Of a stretch of 64,000 nt of DNA, positions 43,201 to 61,746 are shown one piece after another. The notes under the pieces are model-generated. The model did no database searches. It saw nothing but the letters and a program-made list of their open reading frames with translations, and had not been told where the DNA came from. The position numbers and the translations under genes are program-made. Location of the stretch: NCBI RefSeq assembly GCF_963921235.1, contig NC_086108.1, positions 67,582,001 through 67,646,000 of the forward strand. Reading direction: 5' to 3'. How positions within the stretch are numbered: the stretch's first letter is position 1; every line of letters starts with the position of its first letter. The DNA is from Mobula hypostoma (lineage: Eukaryota).

Positions 43201-44820
43201 TTAGTTATTTTGACAGCAGATGTGGTCAACTTTGTTGATGAAAAGATCCCAATTACAGCAGTTAACTAACCTACATACAGTAAAGAAATTGGAAAAAATG
43301 GAAATTATGCATTAATTACTTTTATTCCTTAATTATGTACCTTAATGACATGCTTTAAAATCAGAAAAGTAATTGTTAAGACTATTGTTAACAGCAAACT
43401 GCAGTCTGCCATGCAGTGTAAGGTCCTACACGAGGATGCAGTGATGGCTGCAATCAGGGGATTTCTTCTTACATAACATGCCAACGTGAAATGACAAGGA
43501 TTGCCATTATCCAGTGCTAAGCTGCTGATTTCTGGATGCCTTTGGCTCGAATTCTTGCTGCTGAGGCATCTGAGGAGGAGATTAAGGATGTGAAGGAGGT
43601 CAGAACTGGAGGGATACAGAGTTTTGAAAACTGCAGGACTAATGGAAGTTGGACATTAAAAAAAAATCCATAGACAAGAATAAGCACAATAAGAATTCAA
43701 TTTCATCACTGGATACAGGAGGAAATAATTTTGCATTGGGCTGTTTAAACACAATAAAAACTGCAAACAAATCCATAATTTTTAAAAATTGTCCAACAGC
43801 CTTAATTGCAACACATTTTGATATGTGATTTATTTTTAAAATGAAATTGTTATCTAAAAATTAGAGTTTGCTAAAAATATTGAAAGAAAACAATTAATAC
43901 TTGTCAATATCATTTACGAGTAACAGGCAGTCAAGGGCATTAGTGGCAGATCAGAGAACAGTCAATTCTGCTCCTGACCAAGATGACATTGAAAAATTGC
44001 CCAGATACAGTGCTATAAAAAGTATTCACCCACTTGGAAGTTTTCATGTTTTATTGTTTTACAACATTGAATCACAGTGGATTTAATTTGACTTTTTTTG
44101 ACAATGATCTTTCATTGAAAAAGACTCTTTCATGTCAAAGCGAAAACAGATCTCTACACAGTGATCTAAATTAATTATAAATATAAAATGCAAAATAATT
44201 CATTGCATAAGTATTCACCCATTTAATATGACACACCAAATCATCACTGGTGCAGCGAATTGGTTTTAGAAGTCACATAATTAGCTAAATGGAGATCACC
44301 TGTATGCAGTCAAGGTGTTTCAATTGATTGTAGTAAAAATATACCTGTATCTGGAAGGTACAACTGCTGGTGAGTCAGTATCCTGGCAAAAACTACATCA
44401 TTAAGATAAGAGAACACTCTAAACAACTCCATGAAAAGATTGTTGGAAAGTACAAGTCTGGAGATGGATACAAGCAAATTTCAGAGTCACTGAATATCCC
44501 TCCGAGCACAGTTAAGTCAATCATCAAAAAAATGGAAAGAATATGGTACAGCTGTAAATCTGCCTAGAGCAGGCCGTCCTCAAAGACCAAGTGACTATGA
44601 AAGAAGAGGACTAGTGAGGGAAGCCACCAAGAGAGCCATGATGACTCTGGAGGAGTTACACGCTTCAGTGGCTGAGATGGGAGAGACTGCACATACAACA
44701 ACATTTGCCCAGGTGCTTCACCAGTCAGAGCTTCACTGGGAGAGTGGCAAAGAGAAAGCCACAGTTGAAAAAAAAATGCACATGAAACCTCAGCTAGAGT
44801 TTGCCAGAAGGCACATAGGA

Positions 44821-45963
44821 CAGGGGTCTCCAACCTTTTTTGCAACGCAGACCAGTTTAGTATTGACAATATTCTCGTGGACCGGCCGACCCAGGTGGGG
44901 GGAGGGTTGCCAACAGACAAGAGTAGCAGTCAAATACGTTGTGTTTACCCCCGAGAAAGAGTACCATGCCCATGAAGCCTTGCGCGGGAACTAGTGCGCA
45001 TGCGTGTACGTGCTGATTTTTTTCTACAAATCGTTTTTGGCGATTCCGTTCGGAGGGGGGTGTTAATCACAACTGGAATACAGTATAGGTGTTAAACACT
45101 CAATTTTGTTTCTAAAAGGGTTTATCTAACGAATTTAATATTAAAAACAGCGCATATTTTCCTCTCATGAATATAGTGATAAGTCAATTATCAGCGGAGG
45201 ACAGGGGAGCTTGAAGTAAGTGTTGAACGAACTTTAGAAGTGGTAGAGGCAGGTTCGATATTGTCATTTAAAGAAAAATTGGATAGGTATATGGACAGGA
45301 AAGGAATGGAGGGTTATGGGCTGAGTGCAGGTCAGTGGGACTAGGTGAGGGTAGCGTTCGGCATGGACTAGAAGGGCAGAGATGGCCTGTTTCCATGCTG
45401 TAATTGTTATATGGTTATATAAGTCACTTATAAGTCAATAGCATCATAACATTTTAAGTAACGGTTGGATATTAAACACACAACACATATTTTCCCTGTA
45501 TGAACATATAAAATCATTGCAACACACCAATATCGCTGAATCGGTGGGAGCCCTGGGCTTGTTTTCCTGCAACAAGACGGTCCTATCGAGGGGTGATGGG
45601 AGACAGCGATATTCGAAGGGGGTTCCTTATGTTCAGTCCATTCCGCAATTTAGTTTTTGTTGCATTCATTGCAGAGATATGTTGGAAATGTTAGCAACAT
45701 TTTCAGTGTTTTCGTGGCTATCTCACATAGCTTTTCAGCCCACCGTCATTTGCAAGCTCAAGGAGTTGATCTCCTTCCCACGCTGACATGGATGACGCGT
45801 GGGTAATGACCTCACGTGTGTTCAAGTTCAACAGTGGGTGTGACAGGGAACGGGAAAAGGTGCAGCTGATTCATATCGCCAAATTATATCGTTTCCTCAC
45901 GGCCCGGTAGCACATGCTTTGCGGCCTGGTATTGATCCGCGGTCTGGTGGTTGGGGACCGCTG
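44821..45963 (-). mobile_element. hAT-Charlie (Charlie3/MER1-like) non-autonomous element nested in the Tc1
   Basis: TIRs CAGGGGTCTCCAACC / GGTTGGGGACCGCTG. Imperfect 8-bp TSD ACATAGGA / AAGTAGGA. The minus strand at about 45540-45725 encodes a hAT C-terminal remnant TKTKLRN..NPLRISLSPITPR*DRLVAGKQAQGSH. Confidence 0.88.
45236..45420 (+). mobile_element. CR1 3' end inside the hAT element
   Basis: EVVEAG....FKEKLDRYMDRKGMEGYG followed by the CR1 3' UTR. Confidence 0.8.
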
Positions 45964-46954: not shown

Positions 46955-47350
46955 GCAACACACACAAAATGCTGGTGGAACACAGCAGGTCAGGCAGCAT
47001 CTATAGGAAGAGGTACAGTCGACGTTTCAGGCCTAGACTCTTCGTCAGGACTAACTGAAAGAAGAGATAGTAAGAGATTTGAAAGGGGGAGGGGGAAGGG
47101 GAGATCCGAAGTAATAGGAGAAGACAGGAGGGGGAGGGATAAAGCTAAGAGCTGGAAAGTTGATTGGTAAAAGGGATACAAGGCTGGAGAAGGGAGAGGA
47201 TCAGGGGCAGGAGGCCTAGGGAGAAAGAAAGGGGGAAGGGAGCACCAGAGGAAGATGGAGAGCAGGCAAGGAGTTCTTACCCCATCCCTTATTTATTTAT
47301 TATGCTTCCCCTTTTTTTCTCTCTCTGTCCCTCTCACTATAACTCCTTTA
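46955..47350 (-). mobile_element. Penelope-like terminal repeat fragment with a minimal hammerhead (47016-47053)
   Basis: The minus strand reads tagtc-CTGACGA-agagtctaggcct-GAAA-cGTC-gactg. Same family as 50395, 55100 and 61587. Confidence 0.7.
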
Positions 47351-47854
47351 CAAATATTTTACTCAATGCTGCACAGTTTGGGTTTTATCATGACCTTTTC
47401 AGACCTTTTCACTCCAGACATCACCTTGGCAGCCAAGTGTGAAAAGAAAATAATTCTAAAGATGAAACAAGAGTGAGTGTCCTTGATAACAAAGCTACTA
47501 CCTTAATATCCAAATGTAAACAAACAGAACAAGTCTAAAGGTGAAGCAAGAGTGACTGTCCTTGATAATAAAGCAACATTTAATTGTCCTCTCAAGAAGG
47601 CCCGGTAAAATTGGAAACCATAACAATTTAGTGAAAACTTTCATTTTGCCATTGTCATCCCCCTCACAAAGGGAAATCCTTGTGGTTAATGGAGGTGAAT
47701 CATTGCAGTACCAGGACATTACCAGATTAGTGACCTTGGCCAAACCATTAATCAGTTGCATCATTAGTAACATTGCCTTAATGGTAAGGGGAGCCCAGCC
47801 TTCATGATAATGTCAGAAATGAGGATCCATACTGCTAATTGTTGTTCAACTTCA

Positions 47855-49367
47855 AGAATTGAAAATACACATGGACTGAGATGTTAACTGTCCTGTGCTA
47901 TCACCAGTGGGATCATCAGTTGATCTGCCACCTGTCTTCAGGAGTTTCGGCCCGCTTATGATCAAGACTCCCTCGAGGTGGTGGGCCAGCAGTGCTAAAG
48001 CACCACCTCCCACTGGTGAGCTTAAAAACTTGGCATCTGCCTCTATCAGAGTTGTTGGTCGCTTCCATCCAATAGATAGTCTACTCTTCAGGTGTCTATG
48101 CAACTACTAAAGGGTTTGCAAAAGATGTATACACTGTCCGACTATCTGCCCCTCTGGACATACTTGGTCCACACCCATGCTGATCCTGTCTCTGTTGCCT
48201 CAGCTACAGCCCTGCAGGTTGACTTGATCTCTCCTAGTGAAGCCAAGGTCACGCAGCCACTTCTGGAAAGTGAACGCAATAAACCCACGGCTGCCTACTT
48301 CAAATGGATAGCATGAGACCTTCCACCCTCTGTCTCTGCACTCTGATCTTAATTCTGCATACTTGGTTAGCTTGCGCTCATGGGTTTCATCGATGTTGCC
48401 TTCCCAGGGGACTGTGAGTTCACCAATAACCACTTCTCTACTGGTGTCAGACCATACGATTATATCTGGATGCAATGTGGTGAAAGCTATTTGCTCCGGG
48501 AAGCTGCCTTTCCCATCCAGGTCGGCCTTGACATACCAATCATTGGCTGAAGAAAGTATGCTTGATTGTGAGCCTGTGCTGTACACCCTTGACTTGGAGC
48601 CCTCTTTCACAAATGATATGCTATGTTCTGTGCAGCATGGGGCATGAGATAAGTTGTGCTGCAGTACTCTCTGCTCATCACCTTCTGTTACAACTTTAAG
48701 AATGTTGTTATGTCTCCAAGTGTACATGCCGCTGGAAAGATTGACTCTGCATGCACTCAAAATATGTTGAAGTGTTCCCTTCTCGCCACAAGCAGCACTC
48801 CTGTCTGTCTTATCTTCATACCAGGTGCTGAGTTTGGCAGATGTTGGGAGCAGATCGTATGCTGCTCTGCATATGCAGAGCGGTTCCATCTGCCACAGAA
48901 CATTCCAAGATAGATGTCGTTGTTCAATACTTTCCCACCAGGTCCAAGCCCCTTGCTTGGCCAGGCCAGCTGTTTTAGCTAACCTCTTCTCCTCTTCTAC
49001 CTCTCGTATTTCTTGTGTTACAAGCTCACGGCACTCCTTACCTGTAGAAGATGACCACCACTTGTGGGTTGTCCATCCAAGTCCCTGGCGGCCTAGCTGG
49101 ATAGCCCCAACCGTCTCCTTGTGCTTCAATCTAGACTCTGCCTTATCAACTGCTACACGGGCTGACCACTTCCTGCTTGATCTCACATCCAGCTGGGTGT
49201 TCTTGATGACAGGGTCTTTTGAGTCTCAAAGCATCAAGAATGATCTTACCTTGGCTACCTTGATCTCTTCAACAAGGGATTGCACTGGGATGGTAAGCTT
49301 TGTCTGGCTACTGTGGATTGCAACATTGGTGAGACTGCTCGGTACTCCAAGCCAATTCTTCACATAC
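47855..49367 (-). mobile_element. HERO/R2-group non-LTR retrotransposon with restriction-like endonuclease, 5'-truncated
   Basis: ORF 48200-49186 contains GRQGLG, KQGAWT.W, a zinc knuckle (S)AAC..KGTLQHILSAC, YTWRHN, the endonuclease motif PDIIVWS..VVIGELTVPWE, KLTKY and FEVGSRGF. Upstream reads WLGVPSSL..SLVEEIKVAK. Confidence 0.9.
47907..47981 (-). ncRNA. Candidate non-circularly permuted hammerhead ribozyme in the HERO 3' UTR
   Basis: The minus strand reads CCACCU-CGAG-GGAGUC^UUGAUC-AUAA-GCGGGCC-GAAACUCC-UGAAGAC-AGGUGG-CA-GAUCAA-CUGAUGA-UCCCAC. Stems I and III are perfect and in register with the core; stem II is imperfect. Confidence 0.6.
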
Positions 49368-50394
49368 TATAATAATTCCTCAGGTAAAGATATAATCCAT
49401 GCCTGTTTACAGTAAGGTCTGCACAACGTTTAGACATGGGAGCAGAAGTGGCGATTATCATTCATACCAGGCAAGTGCCAGTTAATACCTCCAACCAACA
49501 ACAGAATCCAATCAATCCCTTGACATTCAAAAACTTCACCATCATTGATTTCCTATACCATGAATATCTTGGGTGTCATCATCTATAAGAAACCTAACGG
49601 GAGTAGCCAGTAAAATAGCATGTCTTCTAAAAAAAAAAGGCCCGTGTCTTAGATCTGTGTGCAACTGCCTCAGCACCTGAAACCAAATCTTCTCCATTTT
49701 CTTCAAGGAGTGCAACCCTGCTTGGACAAGTGAAACTGCAACAGCACCCAAGAAGTCTGATACCATTAAGGAAATTGCAGTCCTCTTCACCGGCATCCAA
49801 TCTTTCAACCCCTAAACCAATGCACCACAGCTGCATTGGGTATGATAGAGAAAATGCCAAAGTTTTGTCAACAGCACTTCCCAAAGCCACAGACTTTTCT
49901 CATCAAATAGACAGGGACATAATTTAATCATAATTTAATGAGTACCTCACCATTTTACAGCAAGTCAAACTCACAGTTTCTTGATTTCATGAGCCTAAGT
50001 ACAAGTCTTCCCCAAGTTACAAATGACACTGAGAACTGTTTGTTCAAGTTGGGAATGAATAACAACTGTGTGAGGGATGATTACAGGATCAGCTATCTCA
50101 GGAGAGTGAGCAGATCTGTAGAGAGTTGCAGCTAACTGGCCTCACTGAGTGAGTGAGTCTGCTCTGCATTCCCAGCTCTGCTTGGGTCAATGCGGCCCCA
50201 AGGTTTTGTGGCTTAGGTGGGGGAAGCGGAGGCATGGAGAAATACCGTGTTCCATAACCACCCAGCAAAAGTTGACTGCAGCCCTAAGGTCACTGGCATA
50301 TCCATCCTGTTGGTCTTCCAAACATTTGATCATATGTATGAGCTATCCATACATATCATTCAAAAACTGACAAGCACCTGGATCAGTATTTCCT

Positions 50395-51185
50395 AAACAC
50401 AGGACATTCTGCAGATGCTTGAAATCCAAAGCAACAAACACAAAATGCCGGGGGAACTCAGCAGCTCAGGTAACATCTATGGAAATGAATAAATATTGAC
50501 ATTTCTGGCTGAGACCCTTCTTCAGGACTGGAAAGAAATGGGAAAAATGTCAGAATAAAGGGAGGGAAAGGGGAAGGAGGATAGCTAGGTGATAGGTGAA
50601 GTCAGGTGGGTGAGAAAGGTAAACACAAAAATAATCTGCAGATGCTGGGATCAAAGCAACACTCACAGCACGCTGGAGGAACTCAGCAGGTCGGGCAGCA
50701 TCAGTGGAAACAATGAGTCAACGTTTCGGACCGGAACCCTTTGTCAGGACTTCCCCCTCCTTCTTTCTTCAGTCCTGACGAAGGGTTGCGACTCGAAACT
50801 TCGACTCATCGTTTCCACTGATGCTGCCCGACCTGCTGAGTTCCTCCAGGGTGAGAAAGGTGTGAAGTAGCATCAATGCAGTTGTCAATGCAGCAAAGGT
50901 AGAGTCAGGGAGCATTACTAGAGAAGACCTGGGGCATAGACAGTTCTACATAGCCAATAAAGAGGCAGGCATAGCTGGGGCCCATGCAGGTATCCATGGC
51001 TACCCCTTGAGTCTGGAGAAAGTGGGAGGAGCCAAAGGAGAAACTGTTGAGGGTGAGGACCAGTTCTGCCAGACAGAGAAGGGTGGTGGTGGTGGAGGGG
51101 AGCTGGTTGGTTCCTTTGTTGAAAAAGATACAGGCCTTCTTGATAAGGGATAGAAGTGTATAGGGACTGGCAGCCATGGTTAGTA
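50395..51185 (-). mobile_element. Penelope-like element remnants (terminal repeat plus RT fragment)
   Basis: ORF 50905-51177 reads LAELVLTLNSFSF...FLQTQGVAM.T.MGPSYACLF, a PLE-type RT motif B. Terminal repeat at 50395-50620. Confidence 0.8.
50621..50849. mobile_element. Palindromic Penelope-derived insert with two opposed hammerheads and a TSD
   Basis: 79-bp inverted arms at 50673-50751 and 50771-50849. Direct repeat (G)GGTGAGAAAGGT at 50608-50620 and 50849-50861. Confidence 0.8.
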
Positions 51186-61586: not shown

Positions 61587-61746
61587 CAACAACAACAGAA
61601 ATTCTGCAGATGCTGGAAATTCAAGCAAACCTTTACTAACTCTTCCTTCAGTTAGTCCTGACGAAGGGTCTCGGCCTGAAACGTCGACTGAAACTCTTCC
61701 AATAGATGCTGCCTGGCCTGCTGCGTTCACCAGCAACTTTGATGTG
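61587..61746 (+). mobile_element. Penelope-derived mini-insert with 15-bp TSD
   Basis: TGGCAGATGAGAGAA at 61572-61586 and 61747-61761. Confidence 0.8.
61652..61691 (+). ncRNA. Minimal type I hammerhead ribozyme (PLE-associated)
   Basis: ttagtc-CTGACGA-agggtctcggcct-GAAA-cGTC^gactga. 6-bp stem I, short stem II and a palindromic ACGT stem III, which would need dimerisation. Confidence 0.7.

Follow-up and report, generated by a model that had tools for sequence, protein, structure and literature searches.

A predicted split-block hammerhead ribozyme in the 3′ UTR of HERO-like retrotransposons and a possible circular RNA template

The window, a 64,000-nt stretch of forward-strand DNA from Mobula hypostoma, contains on its minus strand a 1514-nt, 5′-truncated copy of a HERO-like non-LTR retrotransposon encoding a restriction-like endonuclease (RLE; 47855..49368). 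Homology to other copies breaks off at 49368 and at about 47855. This repeat (family 1) is dispersed, with 1693 first-look candidates in the 3.5-Gb genome, and the scored copies are 96-97% identical. What is left of the reading frame is a C-terminal ORF remnant at 48142..49368 (−), frameshifted near 48230, with a zinc knuckle and the restriction-like endonuclease. The initial annotation had placed a hammerhead motif about 220 nt past the ORF stop. That distance derives from a stop at 48200 (−) that the frameshift creates in the window copy; the family stop codon, TAG at 48142-48144 (−), lies about 175 nt before the predicted cut. The placement of the motif in a HERO-like 3′ UTR was itself supported.

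The ORF remnant matched 67 longer proteins, the majority with a reverse transcriptase (RT) domain, from hosts that include lancelets, fish and bivalves. A full-length copy (L290) has a single ORF with an RT (Pfam RVT_1, E 4e-16) and, judged by eye, one CxC..H..C zinc finger at the N-terminus. Its C-terminal region gave a weak match to R2 proteins in the PDB (E 0.04-0.1), in which the PD..D region was aligned. The insertion flanks differed among all family-1 copies printed and the element is therefore not site-specific. Elements of the HERO clade are described as mostly lacking target specificity (PMC4640811), and the lancelet, fish and bivalve hosts named above fit in part the host range described in PMC9004415. 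The one-ORF layout and the variable flanks appear to fit the HERO clade as these two sources describe it. In a quick tree of the C-terminal region only, with no outgroup and no sequence labelled HERO, a Tetraodon polyprotein (P0021; 41% identity to the window protein) clustered with motif-bearing loci. We take P0021 to be Zebulon/HEROTn of Tetraodon.

The insertions end at 47855..47861 (−), the priming point; in full-length copies, the same letters continue into the 5′ UTR. Most of the true 3′ ends (109/135) stop 1-3 letters into this continuing junction sequence, and 12/135 show short tail duplications. Poly(A) was absent at the 3′ ends in the copies printed. By inspection, a probable tail hairpin with a TGTAT word at its end is located at 47865..47897 (−), and this word recurs in several families. 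The hairpin is a candidate RT-docking element.

The full motif spans 47901-48019 (−) and is larger than first described. Read 5′ to 3′, it begins with the 5′ strand of helix A (48008..48019), which forms 12 bp with 47901-47912 and is based on the fold, pair counts in 26 families and controls. Hairpin H (47988..48007, 8 bp) bridges helix A and helix B with zero unpaired bases. The 5′ strand of helix B (47983..47987) pairs with 47949-47953; it gives G10.1 and makes up the functional stem II. It is followed by the 5′ strand of helix E, an extension of stem III (47976..47981, paired with 47928-47933), and by the 5′ strand of stem III with the GUC triplet (47966..47971; stem III itself is 47968-47971 with 47941-47944). 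The triplet ends at 47966, and the predicted cut is between 47966 and 47965. The 5′ strand of stem I (47960..47965) pairs with 47920-47925. Block G (47941..47953) consists of the helix B 3′ strand (47949-47953), GAAA (47945-47948) and the stem III 3′ strand (47941-47944). The helix E 3′ strand (47928..47933, partner 47976-47981) precedes a segment seen in both sequence and alignment (47913..47925) that holds the stem I 3′ strand (47920-47925) and CUGAUGA (47913-47919), and the helix A 3′ strand (47901..47912) follows directly after A9. A check of the sequence found the core strands, stems I and III, GUC and a 6-bp extra helix exactly where they had been annotated on the minus strand. The order of cleavage strand (S), GAAA strand (G) and CUGAUGA strand (C) likewise held in the sequence and in relatives.

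The motif could in principle be a chance arrangement or a decayed relic of one repeat family. In keeping with this, the bare GAAAC..CTGANGA spacing does arise by chance in the window (4 matches versus 1.65 expected; not significant), and the core with stems I and III occurred in 17/150 shuffled windows. The full fold including the four-way junction described below was found in 0/150 shuffled windows and at exactly one site in the real window. Together with covariation in families across the whole protein tree, this leaves the chance reading with hardly any probability. The hammerhead models of Rfam 15 gave no match at gathering score in the 64-kb window, none up to E 10 in 47500-48500 and none up to E 0.5 in 8 loci, as expected for a pseudoknotted permutation.

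To follow the motif in relatives, we used a profile of the endonuclease region and took the best 79 of 434 related metagenome loci, whose proteins are 35-58% identical to the query. A strict parse (S-G-C core plus stems I and III) recognized 52 of these 79. Among the 27 parse-negative relatives, we inspected 20: the motif was present with mismatches in 10, its 5′ part was broken off in 4, 2 were short and 4 had none. The last group (L064, L082, L086 and L091) yielded no motif in the 182-468 nt past the stop that were inspected. The sister families of L082 and L091 carry their motif 600-700 nt past the stop, and L082 and L091 are probably motif-free because the sequence past the stop is too short. 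The remaining 7 had < 90 nt past the stop. In the quick tree, motif-bearing loci were scattered over the whole protein tree, and a second, distant family in the same genome also carries the motif. Viral contigs gave 16 pattern matches and no confirmed relative. Both copies of one family (L044 and L053) have U for C at core position 3, with the remaining fold kept.

A sequence-only alignment included 28/37 families (L032, L034, L035, L040, L060, L074, L087, L100 and L103 were left out). In these 28 families, the fraction paired was 94% for helix B, 77.5% for E, 99.3% for III and 97.3% for I, percentages that are partly by construction because the parse requires stems I and III. Two-sided changes were seen in 4/5 pairs of B, 4/4 counted pairs of E and 6/6 pairs of I (18/20 overall). 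In total, 93% of the cells were paired, compared with 63% after shuffling and 36-44% after sliding the strands, and the covariation score was 0.742, compared with 0.185 (shuffled) and ≤ 0.133 (slid); since related families are not independent, these pairing and covariation figures overstate the significance. Stems I and III, for which a covariation test had been proposed, and the extension helix are conserved and covary across the diverged families.

The same was not true of the CCC/GGG pairing first drawn as stem II, which is not conserved in the families. A canonical stem II between the strand after CUGANGA and the strand before GAAA was rejected: it was paired in 46.4% of cases versus 40.9% after shuffling, and its first pair forms in just 4/28 aligned families. 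The strand before GAAA pairs with an upstream strand to form helix B, which emerged unprompted in RNAalifold, and the strand after CUGANGA pairs with a strand further upstream to form helix A. Stem II is thus supplied from upstream, and the strand order is (stem II 5′ strand)-S-G-C. Helices A and H stand in for the A9-G10.1 link, and a four-way junction unites the core with B, H and A. The junction was perfect in 26/37 distinct families, as against 6/188 upstream swaps and 2/185 shuffles; 4 of the 11 families without a perfect junction (L032, L034, L035 and L103) have a different periphery. The G10.1-C11.1 position, formed via helix B, was G-C in 23 and G-U in 2 of 28 families. Helix B opens with G-C or G-U in 26/26 junction families, which identifies it as the functional stem II, with only the A9-G10.1 backbone link replaced. 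Stacking of the core on B and of A on H would give a four-way junction of ordinary geometry. Natural hammerheads are described as tolerating an extra base between 9 and 10.1 (PMC4209133). Of the proposal that the motif is a non-circularly permuted hammerhead, the S-G-C order stands, but with a stem II that an upstream strand supplies inside a four-way junction the motif is not a simple type SGC.

In 26/28 families, hairpin H ends with a pyrimidine (alignment A2, columns 67 and 122). It could pair with G12 by one branch-migration step, with a predicted switch-off of the core. The H loops contain a palindrome of at least 6 letters in 15/26 families (shuffle mean 2.9, maximum 9), among them L038, L041, L049, L059, L061, L066, L067, L069, L077, L081, L095 and L099; these palindromes are shared by descent, three of them are the GACG tetraloop, and the family of the window has none. 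Most read TGATCA or TGGCCA, a two-sided change that keeps self-complementarity, and kissing-loop dimerisation is a possibility. The families of L032, L034, L035, L036 and L103 combine the S-G-C core and a helix A-like closure with a different periphery, and L032-L036 have a direct G10.1-C11.1 pair. They are possible intermediates between type SGC and the junction form.

Next to the fold, we compared the bases of the catalytic core. The cleavage triplet was GUC in 13, GUA in 11, GUU in 10 and AUA in 3 of the 37 families. Cleavage requires a residue 17 other than G, and this residue was C, A or U in 37/37 families and G in 0/37, although the parse did not force it. All four bases occur at residue 7, C is found at 11.1 in 34/37, and the distance from the cut to GAAA is 12-18 nt in 37/37. 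As judged from the aligned sequences, the base rules of cleaving hammerheads hold in elements whose proteins share only 35-58% identity with the query. The motif carries the full hammerhead catalytic core, and self-cleavage is predicted.

The fold could also be catalytically silent and serve as a docking site of the element protein, the partial tandems described below having another cause. The R2 protein is described as binding a pseudoknotted RNA element (PMC12222951), and such a docking site would agree with the absence of a canonical stem II and with copies that read through the site intact. Intact read-through is, however, predicted by ligation as well, and a separate tail hairpin lies nearer the priming point. 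According to the parse, helices A, H and B leave all core bases and all strands of stems I and III free, and the G10.1-C11.1 pair is restored by B; the unusual wiring thus completes the core and does not conflict with it. A silent fold also sits poorly with base rules of cleaving hammerheads that are kept across such divergent proteins, and we consider this explanation unlikely. An RT-recognition role for the motif is possible.

According to the account by Eckert et al. 2023 (PMC10085705), hammerheads have six permutations, with CUGAnGA assumed to be inseparable from the adjacent stem strands, and type SGC is reported in metatranscriptomes only, none in genomes of known organisms. The motif described here resembles type SGC (HRIMA-1 and variants) in its S-G-C order, its pseudoknot and its short linker from stem I to stem II (PMC10085705). 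As described, stem II of type SGC joins blocks C and G directly, whereas block C is split here: helix A takes up the strand after CUGANGA, and stem II receives its 5′ strand from upstream of block S via the four-way junction. In type SGC, an extra helix links stems I and II at their far sides, a placement different from the one that our parse gives to helices A and E. Finally, type SGC was described from metatranscriptomes (PMC10085705), whereas the present motif is found in retrotransposons of animal genomes. Both the structure of this hammerhead variant and its genomic setting appear to be new. Our literature search, whose scope excludes most subscription papers and Repbase Reports, turned up neither a ribozyme in HERO elements nor the split-block wiring.

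Copies were then examined around the predicted cut. The 25 letters 3′ of the cut retrieved 91 family-1 copies (from the first 100 of 582 matches). One of the 91 (L252) starts at the cut, and six start 4, 8, 12, 18, 23 and 25 nt above it. L252 was rejected as a copy that starts at the cut, its apparent start being due to a later insertion: an antisense CR1-like fragment is inserted within three bases of the predicted cut in this copy (G000:C2). Without L252, 0/90 family-1 copies start exactly at the cut among the matches listed. The 25 letters 5′ of the cut retrieved copies (30 of 764) that continue to the tail in 30/30 cases. Copies run through the cut site, so the templates were intact across it. 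The suggestion that the template was uncut or religated at integration was thus upheld by the 30/30 copies that run on and by the 20/21 upstream pieces (see below) without an indel at the cut. Truncation at the exact cut was rejected as a general signature; it is absent in family 1, and the two near-exact family-2 cases are too few.

Family-1 copies with a 5′ UTR had an unexpected common structure. We scored 40 of 228 candidates, and 40/40 were preceded by a 5′-truncated piece of their own 3′ end, which measured 13 to at least 1497 nt and was joined at one fixed junction. In nearly all copies printed, the junction had a single fixed form with no added letters. Of these upstream pieces, 19 stop short of the cut and 21 pass it; none of the 40 stops exactly at it. 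Not one of the 40 copies stops at the junction. Target-site duplications were not seen by eye among the family-1 5′-UTR copies. In family 2, 33/39 copies had an upstream piece of their own tail, 5 start within 13 nt after the tail and 1 was ambiguous. Zebulon/HEROTn of Tetraodon reportedly has a head-to-tail tandem structure, and we know of no ribozyme in that report.

We refer to the upstream piece as a second lap. Second-lap stop positions were obtained from the upstream pieces L292-L321, L351-L359 and L390-L428. Between 62 nt and the cut, 8/29 second-lap copies stopped versus 0/30 in the first lap (Fisher p 0.002), whereas stops further upstream showed no difference (11/21 versus 10/30, p 0.25). 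Stops at 64, 65 and 65 nt (family 1) and at 79 and 81 nt (family 2) were inside CUGANGA, and those at 94, 94 and 95 nt were inside GAAA, although the numbers are small. Such stops hint that the enzyme met a fresh, folded template and not a strand that it had already read. In family 2, stops were found at 124, 125 (the cut), 129, 132 and 138 nt, the one at 132 nt being counted twice because of one duplicated locus.

To address the origin of the pieces, we compared 16 of them with the copies downstream. The pieces share 32 non-consensus, non-CpG variants with their own downstream copy, compared with 7.4 expected. The mean divergence of a piece from its own copy was slightly lower (3.7% versus 4.2%, p 0.034), and 4/16 pieces were no closer to their own copy than they were, on average, to other copies. 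Both laps have a same-lineage origin, and the shared variants could reflect lineage inheritance or gene conversion. Self-targeting of existing 5′ ends by new copies was rejected, as it would not give variant sharing with the own copy. It is also at odds with the 40/40 occupancy while most copies are dispersed.

Head-to-tail joins were also present in 11/36 metagenome contigs with ≥ 700 nt past the stop, and in three shorter contigs, a count that short-read assembly of repeats may inflate. A TGTAT..CTGG-loop-CCAG layout is conserved across the join. In the 5′ UTRs of L290, L125, L041, L059, L077, L078 and L099, the junction is immediately followed by a CTGG-loop-CCAG hairpin and then by ~ 20-nt repeats containing GGAAAGAC-like words, an arrangement that recurs in distant families.

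The observations suggest a replication cycle in which the ribozyme would make a cut-to-cut unit RNA that is closed to a circle and copied more than once round, a reading to which we incline slightly. Cleavage, ligation, the circle and internal priming are the steps that we infer. Read-through of a partial tandem whose upstream piece extends beyond the ribozyme would give an RNA with two ribozymes, and cleavage at both would free a unit-length RNA of ~ 3.85 kb. Helices A, B, E and III each join the two predicted cleavage products and would hold both ends of the unit RNA together, so that the ends could be ligated or kept as a nicked circle. Target-primed reverse transcription by the element protein would begin ~ 110 nt past the cut, always at the same internal position. 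The RT would complete one lap, enter a second lap and stop at variable places, and the resulting more-than-unit insertion would renew the two-ribozyme master copy. With synthesis that starts at a fixed point and passes it again, the element looks like one that lacks a 5′ end. The simplest template would be a circle of unit length or a nicked one that helices A, B, E and III clamp together. The partial-tandem structure of the full-length copies gives indirect support to a processing and ligation role for the motif.

An active ribozyme could also act on a linear template, freeing the element RNA from host read-through or limiting its lifetime, while the pieces arise by RT jumps or from copied tandem transcripts. 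The R2 reverse transcriptase does jump between templates. The family-2 second-lap stops that cluster at or just above the cut, the 5/39 family-2 copies that start just after the tail, the six family-1 first-lap starts within 25 nt above the cut among the 91 listed, and the second-lap stops inside the core, which suggest a folded template, would all agree with such a scheme. It does not readily explain why there is one fixed junction with no added letters when 12/135 true 3′ ends show short duplications, or why not one of the 40 family-1 copies ends there. Pieces handed down by inheritance would only become shorter, but lengths up to at least 1497 nt occur, and the sharing of variants with the own copy (32 versus 7.4 expected) argues against this scheme as well. 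We regard the linear template as improbable.

Several findings count against the circular template that we prefer. The 0/90 family-1 starts at the cut leave no direct scar of the presumed cutting. A canonical stem II is missing, two helices stand where the A9-G10.1 link would be, and 11/37 families are without a perfect junction. In addition, a linear 5′ end would give the same result as the 5/39 family-2 starts within 13 nt after the tail. The second-lap stops inside CUGANGA or GAAA, the other possible sources of the shared variants and the template jumps of the R2 reverse transcriptase weigh against it as well.

A cycle of cleavage, circularisation by ligation and reverse transcription over more than one unit has been proposed for Penelope-like elements (Cervera and de la Pena 2014, PMC4209133). 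Like the elements studied here, these are autonomous retroelements in a partial head-to-tail tandem, with the ribozyme in the duplicated end (pseudo-LTRs; PMC4209133). They are described as having minimal type I motifs that need dimers, and a GIY-YIG endonuclease (PMC4209133), in contrast to the complete monomeric, non-circularly permuted fold in an RLE-encoding LINE. In retrozymes, the unit between two hammerheads is cut out and circularised (PMC6765202, PMC11722881, PMC12029980), as proposed here. Unlike HERO elements, retrozymes are described as non-coding, non-autonomous and LTR-like, with target-site duplications and canonical hammerhead types (PMC6765202). The HDV-like ribozymes of R2, L1Tc and RTE are likewise self-cleaving RNAs that process a non-LTR retrotransposon transcript, but they belong to a different class and are located at the 5′ end, the true end of the element (PMC6765202). 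The cut predicted here is internal, ~ 110 nt from the 3′ end, and copies read through it.

Stated generally, HERO-clade LINEs across animals would replicate via a full-length circular RNA made by a split-block hammerhead of a seventh topology, in which a four-way junction replaces stem II and the RT primes internally and runs for more than one lap. We consider this generalization evenly poised between right and wrong. If true, the hammerhead would extend beyond the six permutations thought possible, a non-circularly permuted hammerhead would be placed in animal genomes, and HERO elements would gain a ribozyme. The circle model, so far proposed for Penelope-like elements, would become directly testable in a simple system, an R2-related element with one ORF and young copies. 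Internal priming on circular RNA by an R2-like enzyme would have implications for RNA-templated gene insertion tools as well.

Contig sets of sequencing runs and the rest of the window provided further observations. In four contig sets, depth was raised over 47880-47954 in two runs (X1 and X2). Loose contig ends at 47944 indicate a different repeat, RNA ends cannot be read from contigs, and the raised depth carries no weight here. The high-depth X1/X2 contigs match only 47864-47944 (stem III 3′ strand to tail), with unrelated letters upstream, and perhaps represent a short non-autonomous element in a related species. When we looked for a short element made of the 3′ half alone, the 40 scored matches all belonged to family 1. 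Minimal type I hammerhead-like motifs of the Penelope-like kind were present in the window at 47024-47048 (−), 50775-50799 (+), 61658-61682 (+) and ~ 50490-50530 (−), and these belong to a common repeat. A reading frame of decayed appearance at 44494-44994 (+) presumably derives from a Tc1-type transposase, which it resembles.
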